From the NCBI GenBank assembly GCA_964570325.1, contig CAZMXS010000001.1, positions 96,987 to 160,986 on the forward strand: a DNA stretch of 64,000 bases. The letters are read 5' to 3'. The position numbers were made by a program, and so were the translations under genes. This DNA comes from an uncultured Verrucomicrobiota bacterium (GTDB taxonomy: Bacteria; Verrucomicrobiota; Kiritimatiellia; CAIQIC01; CAZMXS01). Under the pieces are notes generated by a model. The model was not told the origin of the DNA, ran no database searches, and was given only the letters and a program-made list of their open reading frames with translations. Of this stretch, positions 10,024-58,204 are shown one piece after another (the stretch's first letter is position 1; each line of letters starts with the position of its first letter).

Positions 10024-13000
10024 TCAGGCGTCCCACTCGATCATGAACGTGTTGATCGCTCCAGGGAGCACCTCATGCTGCCATTGGCCGGAAAAGACCT
10101 TCGGGCCCTCCATGCGGCAGGTCAAGTGGCCGGTGAAGTTGGTATAAGATACGGGTTCACCTGTGACCCATGCCGGCTGGCCGTTTCTCACTTCCAAGCC
10201 CAACCAGAACCAGCATCCTCCTTTGAAGAAGGATTCCACAAACATATTCTCCCGCAAACTATGAATGGTGAGCAGATGCCCGCCCAAATCGGCGCAGAAC
10301 CGCTGTGCATCCATCCAGGACAACATGCGGGGAATGTGTAGATAACGATGATTGTTGAATTCGACGGACAAGGCTTTCAATTTAGCCCAATCACGCGCCC
10401 GCAAGGCAAGCAGCACGGAGACCTCGCGAGCCTGCGTCTGGTAGCGAAAATCGCGGCTCCATTTCTCTCTCGCGGCCTGATATTCGCGGGTGGGAATGGA
10501 GTCGCAATCAAAGCGGAAATCTTCCGGCGGATGACGAAGAAACGGGGCCAGGCTGGTGAGCGGATTCCGTCCGCAGGACAAGGCCGCCAGTCGCATCTCT
10601 TTCAGGGGAAGAAGATCCCGGATCCGGTTGCGGTGGCAGGTCAGCACGACCAATGGCCTGCCGCGCAGCGGCTCGAGCGATTCGATTTCGTTTTCACTGC
10701 AATGCAGGACGGTCAGTTTCATGCCGCGCAGGGGGTCGAGACTCCGGATTTGACAGCCGCTGCAGTTGAGCGTGGTCAATGGCATCCCGCGCAGGGGCGC
10801 CAAATCAACCACCGGGTTATTATGAAAGATGAAGGAATTGAGCGGCATACCCGAAAGCGGTTCAAGCGAACAGACCCGGTTGGAAAAACAACAAAGGAAG
10901 TTGAGTTTCATGCCGCGAAGGGCGTCGAGGTCCGCCACCATATTGTGGGCTAAATTAAGCGAATGCAACGGCATGCCGCGCAGCGGTTCCAGATCGTGGA
11001 TCGCACAAGCCTCGCAATGGAGAAACTGAAGCGGCATGCCGCGCAGCGGTTCCAAGCTGGAAATCGGATTACCCGCGCATTTAAGCGTGGCCAGCGGCAT
11101 GCCGCGCAGCGGTTCCAAGTCGGCGATTCGGTTGCCGAAGCAGGCCAACGACCGGATCGGCATGCCGCGCAAGGGCGTCAAATCCGCTATATCCGCCTCG
11201 GATATATCCACGCTTAATCCGTCGTTTTCAAGGCAGACCCGGATGCGCCGGCCGGGCCAGGCGCGCGCGAGTTGGGTCTGCCACTCGGGCAGTTGCCGGC
11301 GAAGCTCTTCGTCGCGGCGCGCCCGATCGAGCCCCCGGATGGCCCGCTCCTTCCGATCCGCACGAAGGGAAGAGCGCAGCGTTTCTGCAAAGAGCGATCG
11401 CGCGGCCTCAATCTGCCCGTTCTGCAATTGGCGCTCGGCCAAATCCAACACATCGGCGCGCCAGGGCGGCGTGCGACGGTAGACTCGGATCCGGCGGAAG
11501 CGATAATCCGCGCCCCAGCCCAAAAATCCCAATGCGCCGCGGTTGTCCCCATGCAGCGGATCCGGGTCGGTCACGCGGATTACTTCACGTCCATTAACCA
11601 CCATTCTCAAACAAGCGCCGATCCGTTCGGCCGTAACCTGGTACGTCTGGCCCGGTGCCAGCGGAACCGCCGCTTCACTCCACAATCGCCGGTCCGCGCG
11701 CGAGACAAGGTTGATCGAATTGTCGAACGCGCCATACTCCATTTTATAGCCGCTGGACGGAATCTCCAGAATATGACCGGCACGGATCGCGCTGATGAAT
11801 ACGCCGAGTCCGTTCACACAACCGCCGACCTGCCGCGCCGTGAACTCGATACGCGCATCGCCGAACACATCCTGTTTCAGTAAGAGCACCTGGGGTTCAC
11901 CATGGCTTAAGCGCAATTCGTCTCCGGTCATTTCCAGATCGCCGCCCGCCGCTACCCAGTCGTCAAGGGCGGCGGCGGTTCCAAAGTCGGAAACGACCAC
12001 ATTTTCCCACGCCAACCCGTTTAGATAATCTTCGATGTCGCGCTGCAATTCGCCCACCGACGAATAACGGTTCGCCGGCTCCGGGGCGAGGGCTTTCATC
12101 GCGATATCAGCCAGCGGCCATGGGGCTTGGCGATCCGGGCAGTGATCCAGCGCGTAGTCATTCTCCAGCCGGGTTGTGAGCGGAGTGATCTGGCCGGAAC
12201 ATACTCGTCGCAGATAGTCCGGCAGTTCCTTCTCCTCCACCGGCAGGCGCAACGTAACCAACAAGTAGAGAATGACCCCGAGCGCGAATATGTCGGCCGG
12301 CGGCCCAACCTGGTCCGGCGGCCCGCCAATCTGTTCCGGCGCCATGAACCCGGGCGTCCCTAACAGAACTCCACTGGAAAGCGCGCCATCGAGATGGCGA
12401 GGGAAACGAGGGGGCGCATCGGCAACCGTCTCGACGCCCGAATACCATTCTTTCGCCAGGCCCCAGTCAGTCACCAATACCTCGCCGAAACTTCCTATAA
12501 GAATGTTGTCCGGTTTCAAATCGCGATGAATGATCCCTTTGGAATGCGCAAACGCGACGCCGTCGCAAACCTTCAGCAGGATATGCAGCAACCGTTCCAG
12601 CGGGTAGGTTTCGATCGTGGGGCGATCGCCGGACCGGAGGCGATTGATCACCGCCGTGAGGGTTTCTCCCTCCACCAGTTTCATGACATAGAAAAGGCGT
12701 TGTTGTGAATCGCAGCCCATTTCATAAAGAGGCATGATATGCGCATGGCCAAGCCGGGCGGTGAGTCGGGCTTCCCGAATAAAACGCGCCAAGGTCTGCT
12801 CCGGGGCGTTTGGGTTATGCGGGAGAAATTTGATCGCAACCTTCCGCTCGCACCGTTTATCCCAAGCTTCAAAAACCGTTCCCATACCGCCCTGCGCGAT
12901 CCGGCGAATAAGCTGAAAGCGCCCGCCCCCGGCCACGGCGATTACCCGCGATTCCCGCTTGCACACCGCCACCTGCCGCGGGGCAACAAAACCGGCCTCC

Positions 13001-13107
13001 CGAACCAAACAGGCCAGTTTCCGACTTGGAGCAGGAGGAATCAACCGTATCGGCCAAGATGGGCACGTGGGTTCAGTGGAGTGAATCTGATCTTTTTTTC
13101 TTTTCAA
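10024..13107 (-). CDS. Ser/Thr protein kinase fused to LamG/DUF1080-like domain, ~12 leucine-rich repeats and a C-terminal C-type lectin-like domain
   Basis: Kinase motifs GGMGTVFEA, VAIK, HRDLKPDNIL, DWGLAKE. About 22-aa repeats with consensus LEPLRGMPL. The C-terminus (WMDAQRFCADLGGHLLTIHS...WFWLGL...WVTGEP...FMIEWDA) follows the CTLD pattern. Confidence 0.85.
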   Translation of the reverse strand: MKRKKDQIHSTEPTCPSWPIRLIPPAPSRKLACLVREAGFVAPRQVAVCKRESRVIAVAGGGRFQLIRRIAQGGMGTVFEAWDKRCERKVAIKFLPHNPNAPEQTLARFIREARLTARLGHAHIMPLYEMGCDSQQRLFYVMKLVEGETLTAVINRLRSGDRPTIETYPLERLLHILLKVCDGVAFAHSKGIIHRDLKPDNILIGSFGEVLVTDWGLAKEWYSGVETVADAPPRFPRHLDGALSSGVLLGTPGFMAPEQIGGPPDQVGPPADIFALGVILYLLVTLRLPVEEKELPDYLRRVCSGQITPLTTRLENDYALDHCPDRQAPWPLADIAMKALAPEPANRYSSVGELQRDIEDYLNGLAWENVVVSDFGTAAALDDWVAAGGDLEMTGDELRLSHGEPQVLLLKQDVFGDARIEFTARQVGGCVNGLGVFISAIRAGHILEIPSSGYKMEYGAFDNSINLVSRADRRLWSEAAVPLAPGQTYQVTAERIGACLRMVVNGREVIRVTDPDPLHGDNRGALGFLGWGADYRFRRIRVYRRTPPWRADVLDLAERQLQNGQIEAARSLFAETLRSSLRADRKERAIRGLDRARRDEELRRQLPEWQTQLARAWPGRRIRVCLENDGLSVDISEADIADLTPLRGMPIRSLACFGNRIADLEPLRGMPLATLKCAGNPISSLEPLRGMPLQFLHCEACAIHDLEPLRGMPLHSLNLAHNMVADLDALRGMKLNFLCCFSNRVCSLEPLSGMPLNSFIFHNNPVVDLAPLRGMPLTTLNCSGCQIRSLDPLRGMKLTVLHCSENEIESLEPLRGRPLVVLTCHRNRIRDLLPLKEMRLAALSCGRNPLTSLAPFLRHPPEDFRFDCDSIPTREYQAAREKWSRDFRYQTQAREVSVLLALRARDWAKLKALSVEFNNHRYLHIPRMLSWMDAQRFCADLGGHLLTIHSLRENMFVESFFKGGCWFWLGLEVRNGQPAWVTGEPVSYTNFTGHLTCRMEGPKVFSGQWQHEVLPGAINTFMIEWDA
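10420..11220 (-). repeat. ~66-bp tandem DNA repeats encoding the LRR units
   Basis: Recurring CGGCATGCCGCGCAGCGGTTCCA-like cores about every 66 nt (for example near 10970, 11035, 11100, 11165). They appear as repeated MPRSGS strings in the off-frame ORF track. Confidence 0.6.
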
Positions 13108-20165: not shown

Positions 20166-20451
20166 AATAGACGCTCAATACTTGCCAGCGCCCCGCCGCA
20201 AACCGTGATCCTTGCCGCAAAGCCAGCCGTCACAATGGCTCAACCGGTTCCAGCCGTCACCCCAATTTACAACCTCACACCGCATATAATACGTTGATGG
20301 TTGATTTTTTTCAAACGCTTTACACAACGAATTTTTTATCATTCCAGCCCCGCCCAATATGGGGCATGCCTTGACACATCCTATTGAGCAGGGGTATCTG
20401 TTATTAAAATAATGGCCTGACATACGTCACGCCGGACGTCAAGGTATTTAT
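20166..20451. promoter_or_regulatory. divergent promoter region with short direct repeats
   Basis: AT-rich. GCCGCAAA occurs at 20195 and 20214. CCAGCCGTCAC occurs at 20224 and 20250. ACGTCA occurs at 20425 and 20436. A TTGACA hexamer lies at 20371-20376. Confidence 0.4.
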
Positions 20452-23400
20452 ATGTTTCAGCCTTGGCTCCCGGGAGGGTTTGTTATGCGAACAATGCACT
20501 TTGGAAGCAAGCGGTCACGCGACGGAAGGCAGATCATCAGCGGCATGGGATTATCCATCCTGCTCATTGCCGGTCCGGCTTTTGGCACGGGCTGGATTTC
20601 GCCCAATGCCAATAACAACCCCACCCGTTGGGATAATGAGACTTTGGCGCGCGATAGCAACGTGATCACTTATGCCAGTTGCACACCGAGTAAAACCGGC
20701 TGGGGCCAGGCACTAGAACTTTACTGTGACCCCATCAAGTGCCGGCGCATCCGCGTGAACGCTGATTATCAGCCGGGTGTCAGCTCGGTTCGCCTGGAAA
20801 TCAGGCTGTATCCCAGCGGCACCTGGCAAAACATTTATGAGGGCTCATTCAGCAACCAGGACTGGCAGATCGTCACTTTCAACACCACGAACATCAGCGG
20901 GGCGCGCTGGACCTGGAATTTCACGGACACCATCACTTTCTGGCTCTATGAGCTGGAGTTTTTCGAGGAGGGCGCGACGATCACCGTGCCCGCCTGCGAA
21001 ACGCTGGACGCCAGCTCGGTCGAGGGAACCACGGTCATCCTGCACGGCAACCTGACCGATGATGGCGGCGACCTGTGCCAGTGGCGCATGCAATACGGCC
21101 TGACTTCGAGCTACTCCACCAACACGGAGTGGGTTGGCAACGAGGTGGCGCCAACCCATTTCAGCAAGCTGCTGGTGGATCTGCCGACCAACACCACCTA
21201 CCATTTTCGCGCCCAGGTGCAAAACAGCGCGGGCATCGCCAGCGGCGAGGACAAGGAGTTCACCACCGGCCCGCCGGCCACCGGCTGGATTTCGCCGTCC
21301 GGCTCCAGCAACGACACCGGCAACTGGGAATACCGGGAACGGGCTTACGACGACAACGTGGCAACGGTAGCCCGTTGCCGGCATCCCATGGGCAACCCGG
21401 TCTGGTCGCCCTACATCTACCTGACCCATTCGATTATGATCTGCGACGGAATCGAGTTCTACGCGCGCCGCACCGCGGAGTTCGACATGGGTGAGGTCGG
21501 CGTTCTGCGCAACGGCGCCTGGACCAACGTGTTCAGCGCCAACTTCACCAACCATGTCTGGACCGAGGCCTGGTTCCCGAAAGGCACGGTCACTCAGGCC
21601 CGCGCGCGCTTCCGGCTGACGTCCACCAGCTACGGCCTGGACTACGAACTCAATGAATTCAAGTTCCACCGGCTCGTGGACACGATCATCTCCGGCCGCT
21701 TCAACGGCAATACGCCCGTTACGCTCGTCATCAACGGCGTGACCAACAACACGTTCACGAATTTCACCACCAACGTGTTCAGCTTCGCCGTGTCGGTCGG
21801 CGCCGGCAGCAAGATCTTGATCTTCTACAACGACAACAATCCGGCCACGAACAACGGCGCCGTGGTGACGCTCGCCACCGGCTACAACATGACCGACCTG
21901 GACCTGACGGACGGCGAGCTCATCGTCCGCAACGACTACGGGAGCGGCCTGAGCAACGCGGACCTGATTCAGGCCACCACCGGCGATGCGGATATTCCCT
22001 ACAGCTACAGCGGAACATCCATCATCGTCTCCAATGCCGCCCTCAACGTGCCGGCCGGCCACACCTATGCGCCCGGCACCAACTCGCTCACGCTCTACAG
22101 CAATCTGGTCTACAACGGCACGCTCAACAATACATCCGGCACGGTGACTTTCGCCGGGAACACCCGCATCACCGGCAAGGCCGACGCGTCCTTCTACAAC
22201 GTGACGGTCGCCGGCACGCTTTACGCGCCGACGGGAACGATGTCCGTCGCCGGCAACTGGGTCAATAACGGCTCGTTCTCCAACAACAGCGGCACGGTGA
22301 ACTTCAACGGCAACACCACCATCTCCGGCACGCGGACATCCCTCTTCCACAACGTCACCATCTCCGGCAACCTGGGTGCGCCGGCCGTGATGGGCGTCGC
22401 CGGCAACTGGGTCAATAACGGCGCGTTCTCCAACAACCTCGGCCAGGTAATCTTCAACGGCAACACCACCATCAGCGGGTCCAGCGACACCACCTTCGAC
22501 GACCTGACGATCGCCGCCGGGGCGACGCTGACCGGCCCATCCGGCACGCTGACCGTCAACGGCAACTGGAACAATGCGGGCGGCGCCTATAACCACAATA
22601 ACGGCACGGTCGTCATCGGCGGCACAACCGCCAGCACCAACTCGGGCAACACCACCTTCTACAACCTCGCCTGCACCACCCCGGGCCGGGCGATCTATTT
22701 CACCCCGGGTTCCACCCAGACGGTCGCCGGCACGTTCACGATGGCCGGCGACAGCACCTCCCAGATCCTGCTGCGTTCGACGGTGGCGGGCAGCAAATGG
22801 AAGCTGGACCTGCCCAATACCGACCAGTCCGTGACCTATGTCAATGTGCGCGACTCGGACGCTTTGAACCACACGGTCACCGTCTCCGGTGGCACGGACA
22901 GCGGCAACAACAACGCCAACTGGATTTTCGCCTCGAGCCGCTACTGGGTCGGCGGGACCGGCAATTGGTCGGATACCAACCACTGGTCGCTGACTTCCGG
23001 CGGCCCCGGCGGCGCGTCCGTCCCGACCACCAACCAGCTCGCTATCTTCAACTCCGCCTCGGGCACCGGCACGGCCACGATCAACGTCCCCGCGAACATC
23101 AAGGGCTTGAGCATTCTCGCCGGCACGACGATGACCATCGCCGAAGGGACAAACTTGTTCACAGTCGGCACGGCCGGCTGGGAACAGAAGGGCGGCACCT
23201 ACACCGGCGGCAGCGGCACGCTGACCGTCAACGGCACGTTCCTGCTGACCAACGGCACGTTCACGGCGCCGTCCGGCCTCTTCTCCCTGAGCGGCAACTT
23301 CACCCGCCGGGGCGGCACCTATAACCCCAATGGCGGTACGATCGCGTTCGACGGCTCGACGCTGATCACCCAGACCGTCACCAACAGTTTCGCAAACGTG

Positions 23401-26400
23401 ATCATCAACGGTGAATTGACCGCCCCGGCCTACCTGATCATCAACAGCAATTTTGTCAACAACGGCACATTCAACGCCGGCGCCGGCATCGTGCGCTTCG
23501 CCAGCAACACCGTCGTCAGCGGCGCCAGCACGAGCGTGTTCAACAACCTGCTGATCACCGGGCAATTCACGTCCCATAGCAACTGGCTCAGCATTGCCAA
23601 CAGTCTGACCAACAACGGCACGTTCAACGCCAATGGCGGGACGGTCGCGTTCACCGGCTGGACCATGCTCGGCGGCAACAGCACCTCGCAGTTCAACAAC
23701 GTGGTGATCAACGGCTGGCTGACGCCCGGCGCGACGCGACCGATAATGGTCGCGGGGGACTGGATCAACAACGGCAACTTCTACCACAACGACGGGTCCG
23801 TGATCTTCAACGGGGCCAGCGCCATCAGCGGCACGAACGTCACGGTCTTCAATAATTTCACCATCGCGGGCGCGGTCACCGCGCCCGCCGGCGAGATGCG
23901 CGTCGCCGGCAACTGGGTCAACAACGGAGCGTTCAACGCGAACGGCGGCATGGTCACGTTCAACGGCCAGACCACGATCAGCGGCGCCAGTTCCAACCAG
24001 TTCAACCACGTCACCCTGTGGGGCAACCTGACGGCCCCGACCGGAACGATCTATGTCGCGGGCAACTGGATCAACGACGGATCGTTCACCCATAATAATG
24101 GCACGGTCTTCTTCAACGGGACCAGCCTGATCGGCGGTGGCGTGGTCACAACGTTTAAAAACGTGATCATCGGCGCGGACGCCGCCGTGACCGGCCCCGC
24201 CTCCACCCTGAACGTCGCCGGCAACTGGAACGGCAGCGCCGGCTATTATTACAACAACGGCGGCCGCGTGATCCTGCCCGGCACGACCACACAATGGGTC
24301 TCCACCGGCGGCGCCTGGCTCAACGGCACCAACAACTGGAAGAACAACTGGGGCACCCTGATCGTATCCAACGGCTCCGCCGGCGGCGTCTATTTCACCG
24401 ACGGCTTCAAGGCGAACTACTTCATTGACACCGTGCCCGGCTCAACCCTCTATTTCCGAACGCAGGAGGAAGTCACCAACGTCTATGAGTTCGGCGCCGT
24501 CGGCGGGTTGACCTTGCAGGGTTCGTCATCCCAGCGGATCATCCTGCGCCGCTACGGCGGCTCCGGCACAAACCAGTGGGAATTGACGCCCACCGCCGCG
24601 AGCTTTAACTGGACAGTCAATTATGTGGACGTTCAGAACTCGGTCAACTCGGGATCCAGCGCCATTTACCCGACCAATTCGCTGGACTCCGGCAATACGG
24701 AGAATTGGTTCGTGCCCACGCTCGTCGAGTTCGGCTGGCTCTACGCCATCGGCCGCGACGGCGCGGTTACCGTGCGCTGGAAGACGGAGTCCGAGGTCAA
24801 CAACGCCGGCTTCAACGTGTACCGGGCGCCGGCCGCCGACGGGCCGTACGCGCGACTCAACCCGACGCTGATCCGCGGGCTGGGCAACTCGGTCATGGGC
24901 GGGGAATACAAGTTCGAGGACGGCGCAGCGACCAACGGCGCGACCTATTATTATCTGGTCGAAAGCGTCGAGTATGATGGCCGCGCGCAATTGTTCGGGC
25001 CGTCCGCGGCGCAGCCCGGACGCGACAGCGACGGCGACGGCATGACCGACGACTGGGAGGATTTCTACGGGCTGGACAAGGGGCTGGACGACGCGGGCGG
25101 CAACCCCGACGGCGACGGCTGGACCAACCTCCAGGAGTTCCAGCGCGACACCAACCCGTACCAGGATGAAGGCGAAACGGGCGCAGGCGGGGGCGGCGGC
25201 CCGCCGACCGCCGGCGGGGCGGACCTCTACAAGCTGACGGTTGACGCGGACGGCATCTACCGGCTCGACGCTGCGTACCTCTCGACCTATACCACCAACC
25301 TCGCCGCTTGGGTCGTCAGCAATATCCACATTTTCTGCCAGGGGGCGGCCATCCCACTGCTTTATCACGACGAGGACGACGCCGCCTTCGGCACTAATGA
25401 CTATGTTGAGTTTTTTGGCCGCGGCCTGAACACGCGCTTCTCCGGCGATAATATCTACTGGCTCTGCCCGTGGACCAATGCCGGCCCCATCATGCCCGCT
25501 GTCGGCAACGGCAGCGGAACCCTGCAAACGACCGCGCCGTTCACCGAACACTTCGAAGAAAACGCGTACTACGAACCGGAATTGCCGGACGAATATCCGG
25601 ATGACGACCACTGGTTCTTCTACGACAGCCTCTGGGTCATCGGCCCGGAAACCAATACGCTCGACTTCTTCCCGACGTTGTCCGGCGTCGCCGGCGGCAG
25701 TGCCACCGGGCTGTTGACGGTGGCCTTGCGCGGCCTGAACGAGGGGACCAATACCGTCCGAGTATGGCTGAATGGCGCGGCTTGCCCCGACGCGGTCTGG
25801 ACCGGTCTGCACCAGTATGCCTATGCGGCGCCGATCAGCCAGGCCGGCCTGCTCGAAGGCACAAACACGGTGACGCTTTCGCTGATCGGCGACGAGGAAA
25901 CATTCAGCCGCGATGTGCTGATCAACTGGTTTGAAATCGCCTACACGCGCGACCTCACGGCGGCAAACGGCGCCCTGCTCTTCACCAATCGGGCCGGCGG
26001 CGCGGCGGCCTGGCAGGTCGGCGGCTTCGCCGCCGCCGACGTACGGGTACTGCGCGTGGGCGACACCGGCGATGTCGCCGTCGCGGTGGTGACCAACGTC
26101 ACCGTCAGCGGCGCGGGCCCCTACGCGGCGGTTTTCGCCGACAACGCGCCGGCGGGCGCGGCTTATGCCTTGGCCGCCGCCAACGCCCTTCGCCGCCCGG
26201 CCGCCTGCGTTGCAGAAGAATCGTCGAACCTGCGCAGCGCAACCAACCAGGCCGACTACCTCATCATCGCCTACGAGCCGTTCCGCGAGACACTCGCCCC
26301 GTTGATTGCCGACCGTGCCGCGCGCGGCCTGAACGTCAAAGTCGTCGGCTTGACCGATGTGTACGACGATTTCAACTTCGGGATTCGGAGTCCGTACGCC

Positions 26401-28521
26401 ATCCGCGATTTCCTGGACTACGCCCGACAGTATTGGCGGAAACCGGCCCCCATGTACGTCCTGTTCGCCGGCGACACCTCCTATGATTACCGCGACTATG
26501 AGGACGTTGGCGCGGTTGATTACCTGCCCACGAAGATGATCCACGATGTCTTCGGCGAGGTTCCGTCCGACAACTGGTTTGTTTCGCTGGTCGCAACCAA
26601 CACCGGCTCGGAAGACATGTTTGTCGGGCGTTTCCCCGCGCGCTCCACCAACGACCTGGCGCGTATGATCCAGAAAACGCTCGATTATGAAGCCGCGGAT
26701 CCCGAGGCGCCCTGGGCGCGGCGCGCGGCGTTCGTGGCCGATAATGGGGATCCCGAATATGAGCGCATCTGCGCGGCCACGGCCGGCTGGCTGCCAACCC
26801 ACTACGTCGCCACCAACATCTGGGTCCGGACCTACGCGCAGCCCACCGACTGCCGGCCGGAGATCCTGGCCGCGTTCAACAGCGGCGCGCTGCTGATCGA
26901 GTACGCCGGACATGGCTCCTACAGCAAGTGGGCGCACGAGGGCATCTTCCGCAACGAGGACATTGCCGCCCTCACCAACGCCGCGACCACGCCGCTGGTC
27001 GTTACGCCCACCTGCATGAACGGTTACTTCGTCACCCCGGCTCACTACAACCGCGAGTGCATGGCCGAACAGCTCATACGAACGAACCGCGTCGGCGCCG
27101 CCGCCTGCCTCTCGCCATCCGGCTGGTCGGCGCCGCCTGAACAGCGCGTGCTGGCCGAGGGGCTCTTCCAGGCGATTTTCGCGGAGGGCGCCTTCGAAGC
27201 CGGCCCGGCGGTCGCGCGCGCGAAGCAGCTCCTGCTTGAACAGCACGGCACCAACGGCCTGATGGTGGCCAATACTTACGTTCTCTTCGGCGACCCGGCC
27301 CTGCGCCTGCGCCGGTGGTCCGGCTATGTGTACGACACGAACGCGCCGGCCGTCACCGCCGTCAACCCGACTAACGGCTCGATCGCCGCCGATCCGGCCG
27401 GCGCCATCCGCGTGACCTTCAGCAAGCCAATGAACGACATCGCCACGCGCACGGCATTTGCCCTCGATCCGCCAGCCGCCGGCGCGTTCCAGTGGGACGG
27501 GAACACCCTCGTGTTCCAACCGGAAGCGGCCCTGACGCCGTTCGTCACCTACACCGTCACGCTTCACGACACCGCCTGCGACCGCACCGGCCACCGGCTG
27601 GCGGCGGACTATACCTTCGCCTTCACGCCCACGCGCTGGACGGCCGCCGGCACAATCGCCTACGCCGGGTTGCAGTCCGGTTTGATCTACATCTTCGGCG
27701 TCGCAACGGAGGACGACTGGCGTCCCGGCGCCACGCCCGCCCTGATTTCACAGCCGGGCGCCTACACGCTTGACCGGCCGGGCAATACGCCGATGTGGCT
27801 GCGCGCGTTCCGCGACACCAACGGCAACGGCCTCCTGGACCCCATGGAGGCCCGCGGGGAATATATCGGGAATCCGGTGATGCTGACCCATGACTTGAAT
27901 GTGGACATTACCCTCGTGGACCCCGACGCGGACAGCGACGGCCTGCCCGACTGGGTCGAGGACAACGGCGGCATTTACTACGGCGCCACGCGCACCGGCA
28001 GCAACCCAAACAACGCCGACACCGATGGCGACGGCATCCCCGACGCCACCGAGGTAAATGTTTACAACAGCAATCCCGCCAATGCGGACACGGATAAGGA
28101 CGGGCTGGACGACAGCGCCGAGCTGCTGGCGGGCACCAACCTGCGCAACTGGGACACCGACGGCGATCTGGTCGGCGACTATCAGGAACTGTTTGTTTAC
28201 GGGACCGACCCCCTGAAAGCCGACACCGACGCCGACCACATCTGGGACGGCGACGAATTGATTGCCGGCACCAGCCCGACCAACGGTCTGGACTTCCTCC
28301 ACGTCACGCAATATGAAACGGCAGACGGCGCCGAATTCACTTTCACCTGGGAGACGCGGAGCAACCGCTGGTATGACCTCCAGGGCGCGCCGGACATCTT
28401 CGATTCCGCGACCTGGACCACACTCGAAACACGGCTGGGCGACGGCGCGACCGTTACCGCCACCAACACGCCGGCCCCCGATCTGCGCTTTTTCTGGATT
28501 AACGTGCGGCCGGCGGAGTAG
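20452..28521 (+). CDS. giant (2689 aa) secreted/cell-surface protein with PATR-like beta-strand repeats, Ca-binding TSP3-like repeats and a peptidase C25 (gingipain)-like domain
   Basis: Signal peptide. Dozens of ~35-40-aa repeats (GNWVNNGxFSNNxGTVxFNGNTTISG). D-x-D-x-D-G clusters. His and Cys dyad-like motifs EYAGHGSYSKW and VTPTCMNGYF at about 26.9-27.0 kb. Confidence 0.85.
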   Translation: MFQPWLPGGFVMRTMHFGSKRSRDGRQIISGMGLSILLIAGPAFGTGWISPNANNNPTRWDNETLARDSNVITYASCTPSKTGWGQALELYCDPIKCRRIRVNADYQPGVSSVRLEIRLYPSGTWQNIYEGSFSNQDWQIVTFNTTNISGARWTWNFTDTITFWLYELEFFEEGATITVPACETLDASSVEGTTVILHGNLTDDGGDLCQWRMQYGLTSSYSTNTEWVGNEVAPTHFSKLLVDLPTNTTYHFRAQVQNSAGIASGEDKEFTTGPPATGWISPSGSSNDTGNWEYRERAYDDNVATVARCRHPMGNPVWSPYIYLTHSIMICDGIEFYARRTAEFDMGEVGVLRNGAWTNVFSANFTNHVWTEAWFPKGTVTQARARFRLTSTSYGLDYELNEFKFHRLVDTIISGRFNGNTPVTLVINGVTNNTFTNFTTNVFSFAVSVGAGSKILIFYNDNNPATNNGAVVTLATGYNMTDLDLTDGELIVRNDYGSGLSNADLIQATTGDADIPYSYSGTSIIVSNAALNVPAGHTYAPGTNSLTLYSNLVYNGTLNNTSGTVTFAGNTRITGKADASFYNVTVAGTLYAPTGTMSVAGNWVNNGSFSNNSGTVNFNGNTTISGTRTSLFHNVTISGNLGAPAVMGVAGNWVNNGAFSNNLGQVIFNGNTTISGSSDTTFDDLTIAAGATLTGPSGTLTVNGNWNNAGGAYNHNNGTVVIGGTTASTNSGNTTFYNLACTTPGRAIYFTPGSTQTVAGTFTMAGDSTSQILLRSTVAGSKWKLDLPNTDQSVTYVNVRDSDALNHTVTVSGGTDSGNNNANWIFASSRYWVGGTGNWSDTNHWSLTSGGPGGASVPTTNQLAIFNSASGTGTATINVPANIKGLSILAGTTMTIAEGTNLFTVGTAGWEQKGGTYTGGSGTLTVNGTFLLTNGTFTAPSGLFSLSGNFTRRGGTYNPNGGTIAFDGSTLITQTVTNSFANVIINGELTAPAYLIINSNFVNNGTFNAGAGIVRFASNTVVSGASTSVFNNLLITGQFTSHSNWLSIANSLTNNGTFNANGGTVAFTGWTMLGGNSTSQFNNVVINGWLTPGATRPIMVAGDWINNGNFYHNDGSVIFNGASAISGTNVTVFNNFTIAGAVTAPAGEMRVAGNWVNNGAFNANGGMVTFNGQTTISGASSNQFNHVTLWGNLTAPTGTIYVAGNWINDGSFTHNNGTVFFNGTSLIGGGVVTTFKNVIIGADAAVTGPASTLNVAGNWNGSAGYYYNNGGRVILPGTTTQWVSTGGAWLNGTNNWKNNWGTLIVSNGSAGGVYFTDGFKANYFIDTVPGSTLYFRTQEEVTNVYEFGAVGGLTLQGSSSQRIILRRYGGSGTNQWELTPTAASFNWTVNYVDVQNSVNSGSSAIYPTNSLDSGNTENWFVPTLVEFGWLYAIGRDGAVTVRWKTESEVNNAGFNVYRAPAADGPYARLNPTLIRGLGNSVMGGEYKFEDGAATNGATYYYLVESVEYDGRAQLFGPSAAQPGRDSDGDGMTDDWEDFYGLDKGLDDAGGNPDGDGWTNLQEFQRDTNPYQDEGETGAGGGGGPPTAGGADLYKLTVDADGIYRLDAAYLSTYTTNLAAWVVSNIHIFCQGAAIPLLYHDEDDAAFGTNDYVEFFGRGLNTRFSGDNIYWLCPWTNAGPIMPAVGNGSGTLQTTAPFTEHFEENAYYEPELPDEYPDDDHWFFYDSLWVIGPETNTLDFFPTLSGVAGGSATGLLTVALRGLNEGTNTVRVWLNGAACPDAVWTGLHQYAYAAPISQAGLLEGTNTVTLSLIGDEETFSRDVLINWFEIAYTRDLTAANGALLFTNRAGGAAAWQVGGFAAADVRVLRVGDTGDVAVAVVTNVTVSGAGPYAAVFADNAPAGAAYALAAANALRRPAACVAEESSNLRSATNQADYLIIAYEPFRETLAPLIADRAARGLNVKVVGLTDVYDDFNFGIRSPYAIRDFLDYARQYWRKPAPMYVLFAGDTSYDYRDYEDVGAVDYLPTKMIHDVFGEVPSDNWFVSLVATNTGSEDMFVGRFPARSTNDLARMIQKTLDYEAADPEAPWARRAAFVADNGDPEYERICAATAGWLPTHYVATNIWVRTYAQPTDCRPEILAAFNSGALLIEYAGHGSYSKWAHEGIFRNEDIAALTNAATTPLVVTPTCMNGYFVTPAHYNRECMAEQLIRTNRVGAAACLSPSGWSAPPEQRVLAEGLFQAIFAEGAFEAGPAVARAKQLLLEQHGTNGLMVANTYVLFGDPALRLRRWSGYVYDTNAPAVTAVNPTNGSIAADPAGAIRVTFSKPMNDIATRTAFALDPPAAGAFQWDGNTLVFQPEAALTPFVTYTVTLHDTACDRTGHRLAADYTFAFTPTRWTAAGTIAYAGLQSGLIYIFGVATEDDWRPGATPALISQPGAYTLDRPGNTPMWLRAFRDTNGNGLLDPMEARGEYIGNPVMLTHDLNVDITLVDPDADSDGLPDWVEDNGGIYYGATRTGSNPNNADTDGDGIPDATEVNVYNSNPANADTDKDGLDDSAELLAGTNLRNWDTDGDLVGDYQELFVYGTDPLKADTDADHIWDGDELIAGTSPTNGLDFLHVTQYETADGAEFTFTWETRSNRWYDLQGAPDIFDSATWTTLETRLGDGATVTATNTPAPDLRFFWINVRPAE

Positions 28522-28531: not shown

Positions 28532-29365
28532 ATGCCGGAGTCCGCATCCAAACCGATTCAGGAGCTGCCGACCCGGCTGGCCGGGTTCCCTTTCACGTTA
28601 CAATTTTATGATCCTGCGCTGAAATCACAGGCGGCCCGGCAGGTGCCCTTGGCGCGGCACGCCGGCGCGCGCGATTCAGTCACGCTGATGGTGCTTCCCC
28701 CAACGCGCGGCGCCGCGCGGGCACGGCGCCGGAGCATGACGGTTCGACTGGATGGCGTCGGAGGTTATTCCGGCGAGTTTGATCCGGTTACCCGCCGCGG
28801 TTGGATCCGCGTAGCGGAAGATCACCCGCTGGAGGCCCTCCTGAACGCCCTGCGCCGCATCGTGACCCTGCTCGTTTACCGGGAAGGCGGCGCCGTCATC
28901 CACGGCGCGGGTGTGCAGCGCGGGCGGCGGCTTTTCATCTTCTTCGGGCCCAGCGGCGCAGGCAAAACCACGGTCTGCGAGCTGTCGCCGGAAGCCAAGA
29001 TTCTCAACGACGATCTGATGGCTGTGCGCCGGGTGAACGGCCGAGCGCGGGTGTGGCCCATGCCCTGCCGCCGCCCGGCCCCGGCCCGACCGCCCGCGGG
29101 CGACGATGGCCGGGAGCCCGCGCTCCTGATTGAATTGCGGCAAGCCCGCAAGACCTACCTGCAACGCCTGCCGCCCGCGCTCGCGCTGGCGCGGGTGCTG
29201 GCCCTGCCGGCCGAACCGAGCAACCCGCAAGCGACGCTGGAGATTCTGGAGCGCCTGGTCCGCCAAACCCCCTGTTACCGGCTGTATTTTACCCGGACTC
29301 CGGATTTCTGGGGCCCGATCGAGTCCTTGTTGGCCAACCCACGGAGACAAGCCGATGTCCGGTGA
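28532..29365 (+). CDS. HPr kinase/phosphorylase-related P-loop kinase
   Basis: IHGAGVQRGRRLFIFFGPSGAGKTT...ILNDDLMAV resembles the HprK C-terminal domain (P-loop followed by an LVADD-like motif). Starts 10 nt after the giant gene stop. Confidence 0.65.
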   Translation: MPESASKPIQELPTRLAGFPFTLQFYDPALKSQAARQVPLARHAGARDSVTLMVLPPTRGAARARRRSMTVRLDGVGGYSGEFDPVTRRGWIRVAEDHPLEALLNALRRIVTLLVYREGGAVIHGAGVQRGRRLFIFFGPSGAGKTTVCELSPEAKILNDDLMAVRRVNGRARVWPMPCRRPAPARPPAGDDGREPALLIELRQARKTYLQRLPPALALARVLALPAEPSNPQATLEILERLVRQTPCYRLYFTRTPDFWGPIESLLANPRRQADVR

Positions 29366-29645
29366 GATTTTCCAGCGATCCCCGCGCGCCGTGCATCGGG
29401 TTGTTGACGGCGAGGCCGTCATTGTCGAACCGGCGATCGGCATGGTCACCATCTTGAACGATGTCGGCGCGCGAGTCTGGGAATCGCTGGACGGGCGGCA
29501 GTCCGCGGCAGAAATCGCCGCCGCCATCGCGGAGGAATACGCGGTGCCCCCCGCCGAGGCCGCGGCCGACGTGACCGCTTTTCTGGCGGAGTTGATGGAA
29601 AAGGGATTGATCAATCGGCATGACGACCGCGGTAATAAAAACTGA
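29355..29645 (+). CDS. PqqD-family protein (RiPP recognition element-like)
   Basis: VVDGEAVIVEP...ILNDVGARVWESLDGRQSAAEIAAAIAEEY follows the PqqD pattern. Overlaps the kinase gene by 11 nt. Confidence 0.7.
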   Translation: MSGEIFQRSPRAVHRVVDGEAVIVEPAIGMVTILNDVGARVWESLDGRQSAAEIAAAIAEEYAVPPAEAAADVTAFLAELMEKGLINRHDDRGNKN

Positions 29646-30663
29646 TGCGGATCCCTATCAGGCGATCCTGCGCAAAACCTTTGAACGGCGCATCCCGTTC
29701 ACGGCGCATTGGGAACTCACCTACCGCTGCAATTTCAAATGCCTGCATTGTTTTAACCGAAATCATCCGGCGGAAGGCGAACTGACCCAGACCGAAATCG
29801 AGCGGGTGCTCGATGAATTGGCCGCGGCCGGCACGCTCTACTTGACCTTCACCGGTGGCGAGATCCTGTTGCGTCCGGATTTTCTGCCCATACTGCGCGC
29901 GGCCCGCCGGCGCAATTTCGCGCTGCGCCTGCTGACCAATGGCGCGCTCCTCACCCCGACCCTCGCGGATGAAATCGCGGCGCTGGGCGTCGCCGGCGTG
30001 GACATCAGCCTGCACACACTCGATCCGAGAATCCATGACCATTTGACCGGCGCGCCCGGAACGCATCCGGCCGTCCTTGCGGCGATCGCGGCCTGCCGCG
30101 CGCGCGGCATTCCGCTTAACATCAAGTTCATCTTGACCCGCCACAATCAAGGGGAGTATGACCGGGTTGCGGAATACGCCGCCGCCTGCGGGGCGCGCGT
30201 GGTGATGGATTACGTCCTGGTGCCCGCCGACGACGGCGCACCGGTCATGGCGCGCCATGGGTTGAACGAAGCGGAAATTAGCGCCTTCATCGCCGCGCAC
30301 GCCGCCCGACCGCCCGTCGCCTTGAGTTTGCCGAACGGCAACGACCCCATCTGCGGCGCGGGCGCCAACGCATGCTGCATCAATCCATACGGCGAAGTGT
30401 TTCCCTGCCTGGCCCTGCGGCGCAGTGTCGGCAACCTGCGCAATCGGTCATTTATGAACATCTGGCATGGGCCCGCCCTTGACAGCATACGGAATACGAC
30501 CTATTCTAGTTTCGTCGAGTGCAACGGTTGCCGGGACGCCGTTTTTTGTATGCGGTGCCCTGGAGTGGCGTTGGCGGAAACCGGGCAGACCACCGGGCGG
30601 GCGCCGACAATCTGCCAGGCCGCCCGGGCCGCGCACGCAGCCGCCGAGCAAATACAGCAATGA
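29620..30663 (+). CDS. radical SAM / SPASM-domain peptide-maturase-like enzyme
   Basis: CNFKCLHC (CxxxCxxC). SPASM Cys clusters CGAGANACCINPYGEVFPC and CNGCRDAVFCMRCPG. Overlaps the PqqD gene by 26 nt. Confidence 0.85.
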   Translation: MTTAVIKTDADPYQAILRKTFERRIPFTAHWELTYRCNFKCLHCFNRNHPAEGELTQTEIERVLDELAAAGTLYLTFTGGEILLRPDFLPILRAARRRNFALRLLTNGALLTPTLADEIAALGVAGVDISLHTLDPRIHDHLTGAPGTHPAVLAAIAACRARGIPLNIKFILTRHNQGEYDRVAEYAAACGARVVMDYVLVPADDGAPVMARHGLNEAEISAFIAAHAARPPVALSLPNGNDPICGAGANACCINPYGEVFPCLALRRSVGNLRNRSFMNIWHGPALDSIRNTTYSSFVECNGCRDAVFCMRCPGVALAETGQTTGRAPTICQAARAAHAAAEQIQQ

Positions 30664-30824
30664 AAAACATGAACACCGGCAAAGAAAAGAAAAAGTACCG
30701 GAAACCCAGGATCATCTACCGGGAAAAGGCTGAAGTTTTGACCGCCGTCTGCGATTCCGCTTGGATGCCGGGCCGTTCCTGCATGCTGGTTGGCAATCCC
30801 AACTGCCAGAAGACGCGCTTCTAG
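30660..30824 (+). CDS. candidate RiPP precursor peptide (54 aa, Lys-rich leader, Cys-containing C-terminal core)
   Basis: ATG at 30660 overlaps the TGA of the rSAM gene (ATGA). Sequence: MKNMNTGKEKKKYRKPRIIYREKAEVLTAVCDSAWMPGRSCMLVGNPNCQKTRF. The ORF track has it only as the tail of a longer spurious ORF. Confidence 0.5.
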   Translation: MKNMNTGKEKKKYRKPRIIYREKAEVLTAVCDSAWMPGRSCMLVGNPNCQKTRF

Positions 30825-30844: not shown

Positions 30845-31972
30845 ATGGGGGCCATGAACGACCCGCCGTCAGTCTCCATCCAGGCATTCCAACTTTCCCT
30901 TCCTGGAAACGCCTGCTCCACAACTGCGTTCCCACCCGCGCTGATCCGCGCGGCTGAAGTCGAGGGCCTGGCGGAATTAATCGCGCATGAACGGCGCGAC
31001 ACGGCGCCCGACCGATTCAAGGAAATCTATACCGCGACGCTGGCGCGTAATGTCCTTTTCCTGGATATTCTCAAACAGATTCGCGGCCGGCTGGCCGGCA
31101 TGGAATATATCGCACTCAAAGGGGCGTATCTGGCAGAGCGCGTCTATCCCGACATCGGCCTGCGCCGGTTTTCCGATATTGACCTGCTGGTCCGCCCCCG
31201 CGACGTGCCCGAAGCCGTGCGCCGATTGAGCGCCTTGGATTATCAGCCCACCGATGGCGCGGCCGTAACCACAGCCCAGCCGCCCGTCTCCTATTTTCTC
31301 AACAGCATCCAATTGCGGGGACCGGCCCACACCCCGGCCGTCCATTTGCACTGGCACCTGTTCAATTCCATCCTGCCGCGACACCCATTCGCGCCTCCAG
31401 ACATCGCCCCGGTCTGGGCCGCCGCCACGCGCGATCCGGCCGGCCAACTGGAAATGTCAAGCGAGCACCTGCTGATCCATCTGGCCGATCATGCCCTGCG
31501 GCATTCCTACGCCCGCTTGAGCCTGCTACGCGACATCGCCGAGGTGTTCATCCGGCGCGCGGCGCAAATCAACCGGGAACGGCTGGCGGCAGCGGCGCGC
31601 GCGCTGCGGCTGGAACGCCCCCTGTATTTCAGCCTGGCCTGGCTGCATTATTTCGCGCCCGGTTTGTTCGACGCCCGTTGCCTGGATCAGGTGCGGCCCG
31701 CGCGCGCCGGCGCGGCCGAACGGCTGTTCCTGCGCCTGCTGCTGGCGGACCGACGGTCGGCGGAACTGTGCCTGCTGGCCTATTATGCGGAAGCCGATTC
31801 GCTGGCGGCCAAGGCCCGATTCGCGAGCCGGCTGCTTTTCCCGCCGCGCGCGGTAATGGGACAAGCCTTTGCGAAACCGGCGGACGATATTACGATCAGT
31901 GATTACGCGTGGCGGCTGGGACGCGGACTGCGGCATGTGGCGCTGGCGTGCCGGCGCGGAATCTGGAAGTGA
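30845..31972 (+). CDS. nucleotidyltransferase-like protein (NTP_transf_5-like)
   Basis: IALKGAYLAERVYPDIGLRRFSDIDLLV motif. Start is uncertain (30761, 30845 or 30854). Confidence 0.55.
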   Translation: MGAMNDPPSVSIQAFQLSLPGNACSTTAFPPALIRAAEVEGLAELIAHERRDTAPDRFKEIYTATLARNVLFLDILKQIRGRLAGMEYIALKGAYLAERVYPDIGLRRFSDIDLLVRPRDVPEAVRRLSALDYQPTDGAAVTTAQPPVSYFLNSIQLRGPAHTPAVHLHWHLFNSILPRHPFAPPDIAPVWAAATRDPAGQLEMSSEHLLIHLADHALRHSYARLSLLRDIAEVFIRRAAQINRERLAAAARALRLERPLYFSLAWLHYFAPGLFDARCLDQVRPARAGAAERLFLRLLLADRRSAELCLLAYYAEADSLAAKARFASRLLFPPRAVMGQAFAKPADDITISDYAWRLGRGLRHVALACRRGIWK

Positions 31973-32076: not shown

Positions 32077-32988
32077 ATGATTAACACTCCACCACCCCTT
32101 CGCTTGCGCATGAATAACCTGCGCCCGCCGCCGCGCGCCGTGCCGCTGGGCGTAGCGCTGACCAATCTGTTCGGCGGTTTCGAGAACTTTATGGGGTGGT
32201 TCTTTTTCGGCTTCGGGATGATCTTCGCCTGGTTCGCCGGATATCGGGCCGATTACTCGTTCATCACCTTCACCGGCGCCAAGGGTCTGGCGGACGGACG
32301 GGTCGTCGCCATTCGCGAGACCAATGCCTCAGTCGGCGGCGGCAAGCACTCGCAGGGCACGCCCGTCTATGAATACCGCTTTACCTACACCGTGAACGGC
32401 GCGGAGTTCGAAGGTCTTTCATACCGAACCGGAACATCATTTGGAGAAGGTGATCGCGTCCAGGTCGAATACCTGCTCCGCGATCCCAGCCGCGCCCGAA
32501 TCGAGGGTATGCGCCGAAATTACTTCGATCCCTGGATTCTCTTTGTGTTGATTTTCCCGGCTGTCGGCATCGGCTTCATCCAAGCCGGATTCCGCCGGGG
32601 ACTCCGGGCCAACCGCCTGCTGGCCTGGGGACGAATCACCCACGGCCGCTTTGTCTCCATGGAAGCGACTGGCGGGAAGATTAACAACCAGGTCATTTAC
32701 AAATTATTCTTCGACTTCACCGCGGCCGACGGCCGCCGCCACACCGCCATCGCCCGGACACACCTCGTCGAACGCCTACAGGACGAGGAACAGGAACCGT
32801 TGCTCTATGACCCGCGCGCGCCGGAGCGCGCGGTGCTGGTGGATGAACTGCCCGGCGCGCCGGGAATTGACGCCCGCGGCCAACTGGTCACCGCCAGCTA
32901 CTGGAACTTACTCAAAGCGCTGGCGCTCCCGGCAGCCACCCTGTTCGGCCACGGGCTCACAGCGGCCTGCCTCTGGCTACCGCGCTAA
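32077..32988 (+). CDS. membrane protein with two DUF3592-like repeats
   Basis: Two TM helices each followed by a similar beta-rich segment. Confidence 0.45.
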   Translation: MINTPPPLRLRMNNLRPPPRAVPLGVALTNLFGGFENFMGWFFFGFGMIFAWFAGYRADYSFITFTGAKGLADGRVVAIRETNASVGGGKHSQGTPVYEYRFTYTVNGAEFEGLSYRTGTSFGEGDRVQVEYLLRDPSRARIEGMRRNYFDPWILFVLIFPAVGIGFIQAGFRRGLRANRLLAWGRITHGRFVSMEATGGKINNQVIYKLFFDFTAADGRRHTAIARTHLVERLQDEEQEPLLYDPRAPERAVLVDELPGAPGIDARGQLVTASYWNLLKALALPAATLFGHGLTAACLWLPR

Positions 32989-42624: not shown

Positions 42625-43191
42625 ATGCCTGGCCCGTACAAGAAGCCATATGACAAGCAGTTCAAAGGGACGCCGTGGATTTACTGATGAGCTGCGGCAA
42701 GCCGCTGAATGTGCTCGCCCGTGAACTTGGGGTCAGTGACATCACCGACAACCCCACAATGGAAGAATGGCTGTGCCTGGCGGCCTTCATGGACTTGAAG
42801 CGCCGCAAGATCAAGGTCTGGACGATCCGGGATCATATGCGCACCGAGTTGGTCGAGACGGCGACTCGTCAGGCGCTCTACCGGGAAGGCCCCATCAGCG
42901 GTCTCATCGCCCATTCGGGTCGCGGATCCCAATAGCCAACCGGGAGTTCCGACGCTTGCGGGAGTAACATCATGTCCCCAGTAGCAAATCCGCCAAGGGC
43001 AACTGCTACGACAATGCGGTTATGGAGTCCTGCTGGGCCACGTGAAATCCGAGTTGGAAATCAAGAAACTGTTTACAAAAAAGAAAGCAGCCAGATTGGG
43101 CTGCATCGCAATGTACTCCAACCGGCGCCGCATCCATAGCGCCACCGGCGACCTGTCGCCGCTTGACCATGAACTGAAACTTGTCGCATGA
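42625..43191 (+). pseudogene. IS3-family transposase remnant (frameshifted orfA start, internally deleted orfB)
   Basis: RBS AGGAGGAG precedes ATG 42625. A +1 frameshift leads into FKRDAVDLLMSCGKPLNVLARELGVSD (orfA HTH). HSGRGSQ and a C-terminal NCYDNAVMESCWATVKSE...RRRIHSATGDLSPLDHE match orfB. Only about 0.57 kb remain of an element that is about 1.2 kb when intact. Confidence 0.6.
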
Positions 43192-51711: not shown

Positions 51712-51712
51712 T

Positions 51713-55111: not shown

Positions 55112-58204
<3,093 letters not shown>

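Follow-up and report, generated by a model that had tools for sequence, protein, structure and literature searches.

What links a giant peptidase gene to the small set of peptide-modifying genes that follows it? The question arises in a 64,000-nucleotide stretch of DNA from an uncultured Verrucomicrobiota bacterium of the class Kiritimatiellia (assembly GCA_964570325.1, contig CAZMXS010000001.1, positions 96,987 to 160,986), the whole of which is called the window below. Here, a gene for a protein of 2,689 amino acids (aa), referred to as the giant, is directly followed by a cassette of the type associated with ribosomally synthesized and posttranslationally modified peptides (RiPPs). The giant contains a peptidase domain of family C25, the family of the gingipains and PorU, with both catalytic residues in place, and the order of giant and cassette recurs in five diverged lineages. 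We favor, with a probability of about one half, the reading that the giant is a C25 peptidase that is exported, works together with the peptide cassette, and probably processes its peptide, this coupling being read from gene neighborhood only.

A C25 peptidase domain with an intact catalytic dyad

A preliminary description of this DNA, based on its letters alone, had noticed a gingipain (C25)-like region in the giant. This assignment is now strongly supported by a Pfam profile, an aligned invariant dyad, and a fold match. Pfam PF01364 matches residues 1936-2286 over its entire length (profile positions 1-374 of 374) with an E value of 9e-75 and 252.7 bits against a cutoff of 23. The module extends over two parts of the gene:

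25222..26256, plus strand: beta-sandwich domains ahead of the catalytic domain, in a PorU-like layout (NCBIfam, AlphaFold2 [AF2], Foldseek)
26257..27309, plus strand: peptidase C25 catalytic domain, with His2154 at nucleotides (nt) 26911-26913 and Cys2188 at nt 27013-27015

The three motifs quoted earlier are in place: ADYLIIAYEPF at residues 1934-1944, EYAGHGSYSKW at 2150-2160, and VTPTCMNGYF at 2184-2193. When the region was compared with PDB sequences by phmmer, YAGHGS aligned with YTGHGS of RgpB, which contains His211, and TPTCMNG aligned with DVACVNG, which contains Cys244; PorU has equivalent GHG and Cys motifs, with which His2154 and Cys2188 also align. Neither residue varies in an alignment of 14 sequences or in any of the 32 C25 domains gathered. 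The AF2 model of residues 1591-2397 (pLDDT, 84.3; pTM, 0.81) shows a C25/caspase-like fold, which in Foldseek is closest to PorU (6za2; E, 8e-30), followed by RgpB (7e-23) and Kgp (4e-18). Matches to 6za2, 1cvr, 4ief, and 4rbm lie between 1e-17 and 1e-30, and the clan-CD relatives separase and CHAT were found too. The alignment of the module to latent PorU 6za2 spans about 960 columns, and the NCBIfam model T9SS_sortase (NF033707) covers residues 1591-2288 with its positions 6-734. On its sequence, then, the giant is a clan-CD C25 peptidase with the catalytically intact dyad His2154/Cys2188.

A C25 propeptide (Propeptide_C25, PF08126) gave no match at E ≤ 5 in residues 1591-1940. We also considered deriving the S1 specificity from the position equivalent to Asp163 of RgpB and rejected this: the giant has Glu there, and the column is variable among relatives. 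As the position is not conserved, the specificity of the peptidase is not readable from it.

When homologues of the C25 region were first sought in a word index, 13 matches came back and the close giants were missed; exhaustive phmmer recovered them. The exhaustive search found relatives of the C25 module in 17,839 of 1.84e9 protein clusters, a frequency of about 1e-5.

The peptide cassette and its synteny with the giant

The stop codon of the giant (TAG, 28519-28521) and the next ATG at 28532 are separated by 10 nt, exactly as described earlier. The following genes lie on the same strand:

28532..29365, plus strand: ScmC-family P-loop protein with the motif GPSGAGKTT, 277 aa
29355..29645, plus strand: PqqD-family peptide chaperone (RiPP recognition element [RRE]), 96 aa, E 7.5e-21
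29620..30663, plus strand: radical S-adenosylmethionine (rSAM)/SPASM enzyme, 347 aa, Radical_SAM E 1e-26, SPASM E 1.7e-11
30660..30824, plus strand: precursor-like peptide of 54 aa with three conserved Cys (MKNMNTGKEKKKYRKPRIIYREKAEVLTAVCDSAWMPGRSCMLVGNPNCQKTRF), overlapping the stop of the rSAM gene
30845..31972, plus strand: NTP_transf_5 nucleotidyltransferase-family protein, 375 aa, without an S24/S26-like N-terminal domain
32077..32988, plus strand: DUF3592 membrane protein, the last same-strand gene

A convergent AsmA-like gene closes the unit after the DUF3592 gene, which was not found in either of two related loci, L005 and L017. We infer that the giant is the first gene of an operon of about 12.5 kb. 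A precursor, a PqqD-type RRE, and an rSAM/SPASM enzyme are encoded together, as in a generic rSAM/SPASM RiPP-type cassette. Family models for known cassettes stayed below their cutoffs: ScmC reached 18.5 (cutoff, 125), ScmD 41.3 (100), ScmE 88.4 (400), PqqD_rel_X 29.8 (35), and GeoRSP_rSAM 99.9 (400), and neither HprK-related kinase A nor B gave a match. The gene after the giant had been called an HprK-like kinase. It does encode a P-loop protein, but of the ScmC family, and NCBIfam and PDB sequences gave no HprK match. Since the PDB profile search returned only generic P-loop and weak PEPCK matches, the likeness to HprK was rejected and we name the protein ScmC-like.

Close relatives of the giant were collected by genome-contig searches and exhaustive phmmer, which gave about eight representatives with 44-46% identity and lengths of 1.7-5.1 thousand aa. 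The closest come from metagenome-assembled genomes (MAGs) of Verrucomicrobiota, Spartobacteria, and Kiritimatiellia. Linkage was counted among the eight giants with readable downstream DNA:

Window giant: cassette follows
L005, Spartobacteria MAG: cassette follows, with a 25-nt gap at the junction
L017, Verrucomicrobiota MAG, 2,646 aa, collinear: cassette follows
L104, protein P0035, 2,975 aa: cassette follows
L105, protein P0038, 2,509 aa: cassette follows, with a 4-nt overlap with ScmC
L014, Kiritimatiellia MAG: no cassette follows
L106, protein P0040, 3,576 aa: no cassette follows
L107, protein P0039, 5,127 aa, Kiritimatiellae: no cassette follows

The order giant, ScmC, PqqD, rSAM, three-Cys peptide of about 50 aa, and NTP_transf_5 is thus seen in five of the eight, so that the possibility raised earlier, that homologous giants are never linked to the cassette, does not hold. 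The linked giants share only 42-46% identity in the C25 region. The 10-nt gap and the tight or overlapping junctions in the homologous loci are consistent with cotranscription of giant and cassette. In a 5.8-billion-protein index, the 54-aa peptide matched nothing but itself; because gene callers rarely call it, its relatives had to be found by a six-frame hidden Markov model (HMM) search of the fetched loci. All five linked loci encode it, with the pattern …Y.KP.I…EVL.AVC[DN]S.W.P…C…G…C.KTR[F/T].

We further investigated the surroundings of the cassette beyond this clade. A metagenome scan with a ScmC alignment yielded 80 loci, in which C25 was sought by a local HMM and tblastn, and 39 ScmC-like loci with at least 3 kb of flanking DNA served as the base of the count. 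Six of them have a C25 gene beside a distant version of the cassette, and the gene orders differ: in L022, L032, and L042 it follows the rSAM gene or the peptide, in L061 it comes after PqqD, in L067 it is located upstream, and in L069 it is divergent. Pfam confirmed C25 in all four of these that were scanned (L022, L042, L061, and L069). In a rough neighbor-joining tree, cassette-linked C25s fall into at least four separate branches and are interspersed with unlinked ones; L022 is a compact five-gene island that does not visibly lie in a glycan locus. As relatives of C25 make up about 1e-5 of the protein clusters, this adjacency is, by a rough estimate, far above chance, and a single inherited arrangement would hardly account for its recurrence.

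Related cassettes often encode a different peptidase. The domain, with the S24/S26-like motifs SMxP...GD...HR...GD, follows the precursor gene. Its His takes the place of the usual Lys, as in signal peptidases of the endoplasmic reticulum and archaeal type. L005 and L067 have it as a separate open reading frame (ORF); in L017, L104, and L105, it forms one protein with NTP_transf_5. Coordinates for four of these loci are as follows:

L005:5423-5971: separate S24/S26-like domain
L017:15492-17105: S24/S26-like domain at the N terminus
L104:19651-21324: S24/S26-like domain at the N terminus
L105:17843-19324: S24/S26-like domain at the N terminus

No S24/S26-like peptidase was found across the 64 kb of the window (best E, 0.11), where only 20 nt lie between the stop of the peptide gene and the start of NTP_transf_5. 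The window operon has evidently lost the domain, and the C25 domain is the sole peptidase of this operon.

The largest group of cassettes without C25 has another large neighbor. There, the rSAM gene and the peptide are followed by a protein of about 750-800 aa with CBM96/disaggregatase repeats and a PQQ-like beta-propeller:

L035:9465-11870: CBM96/beta-propeller protein
L027:12190-14448: CBM96/beta-propeller protein
L045:6047-8455: CBM96/beta-propeller protein

On comparison, the giant and this protein showed no similarity. Cassettes in general tend to adjoin large, presumably secreted proteins with domains of carbohydrate-binding type.

Architecture and surroundings of the giant

As previously noted, the giant is encoded by one uninterrupted ORF, which ORF analysis and translation bear out. 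The features of the gene outside the C25 module are as follows:

20384..20413, plus strand: sigma-70-like promoter match (9/12 positions), weakly indicative
20452..28521, plus strand: ORF of the giant, 2,689 aa counted from the first ATG
20485..20583, plus strand: predicted Sec signal peptide, MRTMHFGSKRSRDGRQIISGMGLSILLIAGPAFG|TGW, recognized from the sequence itself
20584..21666, plus strand: N-terminal module of a CBM32-like jelly-roll, an FN3 domain, and a second CBM32-like jelly-roll (AF2 model and Foldseek)
22042..22641, plus strand: repeat block 1, four Asn/Gly/Thr-rich units of about 51 aa, residues 531-730 (iterated HMM)
23239..24294, plus strand: repeat block 2, seven units of about 51 aa of the same family, residues 930-1281 (iterated HMM)
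24724..24996, plus strand: beta-sandwich-like domain of about 80 aa, residues ~1425-1515 (V.VRW.TESE.NN.GFNVYR...Y.F.D...G.TYYY)
27334..27627, plus strand: bacterial Ig-like domain Big_5, residues 2295-2392, E 2.3e-15
27907..28287, plus strand: bacterial thrombospondin type-3 (TSP3) repeats with Ca-binding DxDxDG; NCBIfam matches of CglD/MtsD type
28288..28518, plus strand: C-terminal domain of about 75 aa, conserved in protein P0001

Translation probably starts at Met12 (20485), the start chosen in the gene call on JGI contig Ga0255811_11709467. Two JGI metagenome samples, 3300021561 and 3300023207, contain this locus too, and there the gene is called from Met12. Because the locus recurs in these samples and the 2,646-aa protein of L017 is a collinear homologue from a MAG, the gene is not an assembly chimera. 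The giant and the L017 protein are 63% identical in the N-terminal module, 53% in the repeat region, 44% in the C25 region, and 42% at the C terminus, and the L017 protein has an N terminus equivalent to the predicted signal peptide. An apparent 24-aa length polymorphism in L001, a 2,702-aa gene call on JGI contig Ga0226655_10000539, was rejected as an assembly artifact of a run of N rather than variation in repeat number, as the insertion contains XXX (at giant residue 648). Two antisense ORFs lie inside the gene (20845-24294, minus strand, 1,149 aa, and 24526-27594, minus strand, 1,022 aa). As homology supports the plus frame, they are shadows rather than genes, of a kind expected in repeat-rich coding sequence at the GC content of this DNA (58-67%). 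The promoter-like match sits in a 286-nt AT-rich gap between the giant and a divergent ATPase gene. Terminator-like sites in the window do not exceed the shuffle expectation and promoter-like sites exceed it slightly, so that these scans are uninformative.

The N-terminal ~400 aa contain two jelly-rolls that are paralogs of each other (29% identity; E, 4e-12). Pfam found only a weak fn3 match in this module. Its AF2 model (pLDDT, 85.8) resembles carbohydrate-binding and accessory domains of sialidases and fucosidases (8ayr, E 5e-13; 2bzd; 4lpl, TMt 0.63), and the module is a putative glycan-binding head. The same jelly-roll-FN3-jelly-roll module occurs with 35-40% identity in three proteins of 570-670 aa. 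Two of them, P0018 and P0021, start with N termini like those of type IV pilins or pseudopilins (GFTLLEVLLV...), and P0020, from a genome of Candidatus Uhrbacteria (candidate phyla radiation), does not. Fusion to pilin-like N termini in unrelated proteins fits a displayed binding module, one that seems to be mobile.

The preliminary description had seen about 1,000 aa of 35- to 40-aa repeats of PATR type in the giant. None of these three points was borne out. The iterated HMM gives a period of about 51 aa and 11 strong copies (E, 1e-16 to 1e-25 per copy), which make up about 550 aa within a larger Asn/Thr/Gly-rich region. Their consensus is F.NVTI.G.L.AP.G...VAGNWVNNG.F..N.GTV.FNG.T.ISG. The PATR profile PF12951 has no match at E ≤ 5 in residues 431-1420, although precomputed PATR matches do exist in the homologous giants P0035 and P0040. 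A DNA tandem-repeat search of the ORF gave nothing more than trivial short arrays, so that the repeats are visible at the protein level only. We presume that the two blocks form a beta-helix stalk.

No Pfam family covers the ~80-aa domain at residues ~1425-1515. Its general pattern reads ..V.V.W.TESE....GFN.YR....G.Y..LN..LI.......GG.Y.F.D.....G.TYYY.L. In four loci without C25, it is encoded by small ORFs that have a signal peptide and lie just upstream of ScmC-like genes, and it is found once downstream of a C25 gene:

L029:9276-9644: ~80-aa domain, upstream of a ScmC-like gene
L026:4440-4988: ~80-aa domain, upstream of a ScmC-like gene
L034:1049-1465: ~80-aa domain, upstream of a ScmC-like gene
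L054:3003-3428: ~80-aa domain, upstream of a ScmC-like gene
L061:4636-5265: ~80-aa domain, downstream of the C25 gene

It may be a further cassette-associated element.

Toward the C terminus, the Ca-binding D-x-D-x-D-G clusters reported earlier are real and correspond to bacterial TSP3 repeats: TSP3_bac (PF18884) scored 35.5 bits (cutoff, 25) in three stretches when the last 300 aa were scanned alone. Exact DxDxDG sites number four (residues 1525, 2492, 2523, and 2546) and DxDxD sites seven. Pfam and NCBIfam scans of the C-terminal domain found no C-terminal domain (CTD) of the type IX secretion system (T9SS), no PEP-CTERM motif, and no transmembrane anchor. From the signal peptide and the domain types, we infer that the giant is exported and located at the surface. 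A gene set similar to type II secretion and type IV pilus systems at 49488-53773 (plus strand), with a pseudopilin-like ORF (…FSLTEVLVAATLSG…) and an MshEN/T2SSE ATPase, is a candidate route across the outer membrane.

The genes upstream are divergent and include an XrtA/PEP-CTERM-type ATPase-like gene, a response regulator, an HD-domain protein, and Wza-like, Wzc-like, and Wzy_C genes; further downstream are genes for an ABC-2 transporter, a GT4 glycosyltransferase (GT), DegT, PIG-L, WbqC, and a GT2. With Wza/Wzc-like, Wzy_C, ABC-2, and GT genes on its flanks, the operon lies inside a surface-polysaccharide island. Elsewhere in the window, two ORFs of about 1,030-1,060 aa on the minus strand (10024-13107 and 55112-58291) have similar C termini, ...FMIEWDA and ...FMIEWII. 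The latter gives Pkinase, leucine-rich repeat (LRR), and C-type lectin matches, and a 316-aa call within the former gives LRR and C-type lectin matches; the two are probably paralogs that combine a Ser/Thr kinase with a lectin. A short integrase-core (rve) fragment at 42675-42935 (plus strand), accompanied by several small ORFs, sits between the glycan genes and a minus-strand block at 43.5-48.7 kb and may be a mobile-element remnant.

One of the linked loci, L104, has two further neighbors. An exporter (ABC_membrane plus ABC_tran) and a polysaccharide deacetylase are encoded after the cassette (L104:22400-24187), and it is in this locus only that an exporter is seen. A PAD_porph gene (Porphyromonas-type peptidylarginine/agmatine deiminase family) lies just upstream of the giant P0035 (L104:6493-7695, minus strand), also in this one locus. 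The deiminase PPAD acts together with Arg-gingipains in Porphyromonas gingivalis, and the neighbor is curious in that the cassette peptide ends with ...KTR[F/T].

Readings of the proposed coupling and comparison with known systems

If giant and cassette work together, PqqD would bind the peptide through its K-rich KKxYxKPxI leader, and the rSAM/SPASM enzyme would cross-link the three Cys in the cytoplasm. The ScmC-like and NTP_transf_5 proteins might phosphorylate or nucleotidylate the peptide. After export, the C25 domain would cut or trim the peptide outside the cytoplasmic membrane; transfer of the peptide by this domain is less likely. The CBM-like head, together with the stalk and the Ca-binding TSP3 repeats, would keep the domain in the glycan layer.

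A number of observations weigh against such a coupling. No C25 is near the cassette in 33 of the 39 loci with adequate flanks, so that the cassette works without it, and the largest cassette group, with the order NTP_transf_5-ScmC-PqqD-rSAM and KKKRAYVKPQCVSEPIYETLALACGK-type peptides, has no C25 within about 8.6 kb. Four of the five loci with a linked giant encode a small S24/S26-like peptidase of the cassette's own, and the local HMM detects one in 20 of the 80 metagenome loci. Since the cassette usually brings this peptidase, we regard C25 as an accessory partner rather than the general leader peptidase. Three of the eight giants (L014, L106, and L107) have no cassette downstream, no exporter is encoded in the window operon, and, with the Asp163-equivalent position not conserved, the sequence does not reveal the specificity of the peptidase.

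Some of these facts would also be expected if giant and cassette were mere neighbors, the giant being an extracellular adhesin-protease for protein degradation or surface remodeling that shares a surface-glycan or exopolysaccharide island with the cassette. We hold this to be possible, though less probable than coupling. C25 modules are very common without the cassette (17,839 cluster representatives; P0002, P0004, and L016 are unlinked examples), most cassettes lack C25, and in environmental genomics papers C25 figures as an extracellular peptidase of a generic kind. The window, L104, and L105 also share flanking WbqC, PIG-L, DegT, and GT genes, and a common island could therefore explain part of the synteny. 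It accounts less well for an adjacency found with differing gene orders in four or more deep branches of C25, for the compact island of L022 with no visible glycan locus, and for the very close or overlapping gene junctions of five giants whose identity has fallen to 42-46%. Were the coupling not real, the gene would be one more large secreted protease-adhesin.

A different role for the C25 module would be that of a PorU-like transpeptidase (sortase), which would cut a substrate close to its C terminus and attach it to an amine on the surface polysaccharide that the surrounding locus produces; it would act on the rSAM-modified peptide, whose ...CxKTR[F/T] end is conserved, or on some other secreted protein. 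Clan-CD enzymes such as PorU and the legumain-type ligases are known transpeptidases. PorU is the best structural match across the whole multidomain module, and the NCBIfam PorU model aligns from its N terminus through the catalytic domain. Genes for polysaccharide biosynthesis and export surround the locus, and the C terminus of the peptide is strongly conserved. We nevertheless consider this unlikely, as the giant reaches only 197 bits against the PorU cutoff of 420, has no T9SS CTD and no T9SS genes in the window, has relatives in Verrucomicrobiota and Kiritimatiellia rather than Bacteroidota, and by sequence scores higher with RgpB than with PorU; ligase and hydrolase are, moreover, indistinguishable at the sequence level. 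A more specific version, in which the enzyme acts in the manner of PorU or legumain outside a T9SS, cleaves ...CxKTR|[F/T], and ligates the peptide to surface polysaccharide or cyclizes it, with head and stalk anchoring it on the glycan layer, appears quite doubtful. If true, it would represent a new sortase-like peptide-glycan conjugation in bacteria of the Planctomycetes-Verrucomicrobia-Chlamydiae (PVC) group and the first RiPP pathway with a C25 enzyme. That the modified peptide instead controls C25 as a trans-acting inhibitor, latency factor, or cofactor, like a prodomain in trans, would suit the absence from the giant of the Propeptide_C25 domain present in many ~1,000-aa relatives and the strict coconservation of the peptide with linked giants, but it is very improbable, since the cassette-linked C25s of L061, L069, and L042 carry Propeptide_C25, most cassettes lack any C25, and we know of no precedent for a peptide regulating C25 in trans.

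To our knowledge, C25 peptidases have been characterized only in Bacteroidota (gingipains and PorU), and we know of no tested function outside this phylum, even though some 17,800 clusters of C25 relatives were found. In bacteria of Verrucomicrobiota and Kiritimatiellia type, giants of 1.7-5.1 thousand aa form a clade whose genes repeatedly stand at the start of an operon with the rSAM peptide cassette, which gives a testable substrate hypothesis for a C25 peptidase outside Bacteroidota. The cassette indicates an undescribed RiPP-like family with a K-rich YxKPxI leader, a three-Cys core, and a KTRF end. If functional coupling holds, clan-CD peptidases would join the RiPP-processing enzymes, and peptide modification might be connected with the glycan layer of the cell surface.

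Among known systems, PorU (6za2; NF033707) resembles the giant in its beta-sandwich domains before C25, the GHG His motif, the Cys motif after a hydrophobic stretch, and an ADNGD segment, and it is the top Foldseek match (TMq, 0.54). However, the scores are 197.1 bits for the PorU model and 156.1 for PorU2 (cutoff, 450), and the structural alignment has 13% identity. In the giant, the module sits inside a 2,689-aa protein behind about 1,590 aa of unrelated N-terminal domains; Pfam and NCBIfam show no T9SS CTD, there are no T9SS neighbors, and the host is of PVC type. With a score below the cutoff, no CTD, no T9SS genes, and a lineage outside Bacteroidota, it is not a PorU orthologue. With RgpB and Kgp (1cvr, 4ief, and 4rbm), the giant shares the catalytic fold, the His/Cys dyad, the full-length Pfam match, and an Ig-like domain after the catalytic domain, but the identity is about 20%, the Glu152 insertion of RgpB (IASAEGGPS) is absent, and Asp163 in the S1 position is replaced by Glu. 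It has no detectable C25 propeptide, hemagglutinin/adhesin domains, or T9SS CTD, and as propeptide and adhesin domains are missing, it is not a gingipain proper.

Relatives are also found among uncharacterized C25 peptidases of about 1,000 aa outside Bacteroidota (for example, P0002-P0008), a group with thousands of members that has the same ~700-aa module of beta-sandwich and C25 domains (query residues 3-697, 30-38% identity). They usually start with Propeptide_C25 instead of the 1,590-aa head and stalk of the giant, and the three sampled for linkage, named above, do not adjoin the cassette. The cassette itself is similar to ranthipeptide/sactipeptide-like clusters and to the SynChlorMet (Scm) clusters in its Cys-containing precursor, YxKPxI leader, PqqD, rSAM/SPASM enzyme, and ScmC-like protein. 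It differs from Scm, GeoRSP, and HPr-rel-A systems in scoring far below their cutoffs and in having its peptidase as part of a giant adhesin-like protein. Full-text literature searches (SynChlorMet; C25 with RiPP; HPr kinase with rSAM and PqqD) returned nothing relevant, with no description of a C25-RiPP cluster or of this cassette. A dedicated protease beside RiPP genes is usual; NisP, for example, is a secreted, wall-anchored subtilisin for nisin. Against this background, the peptidase domain of the giant is ordinary, and what is new is the architecture of the giant together with the conserved link that joins it to a cassette for an rSAM-modified peptide.

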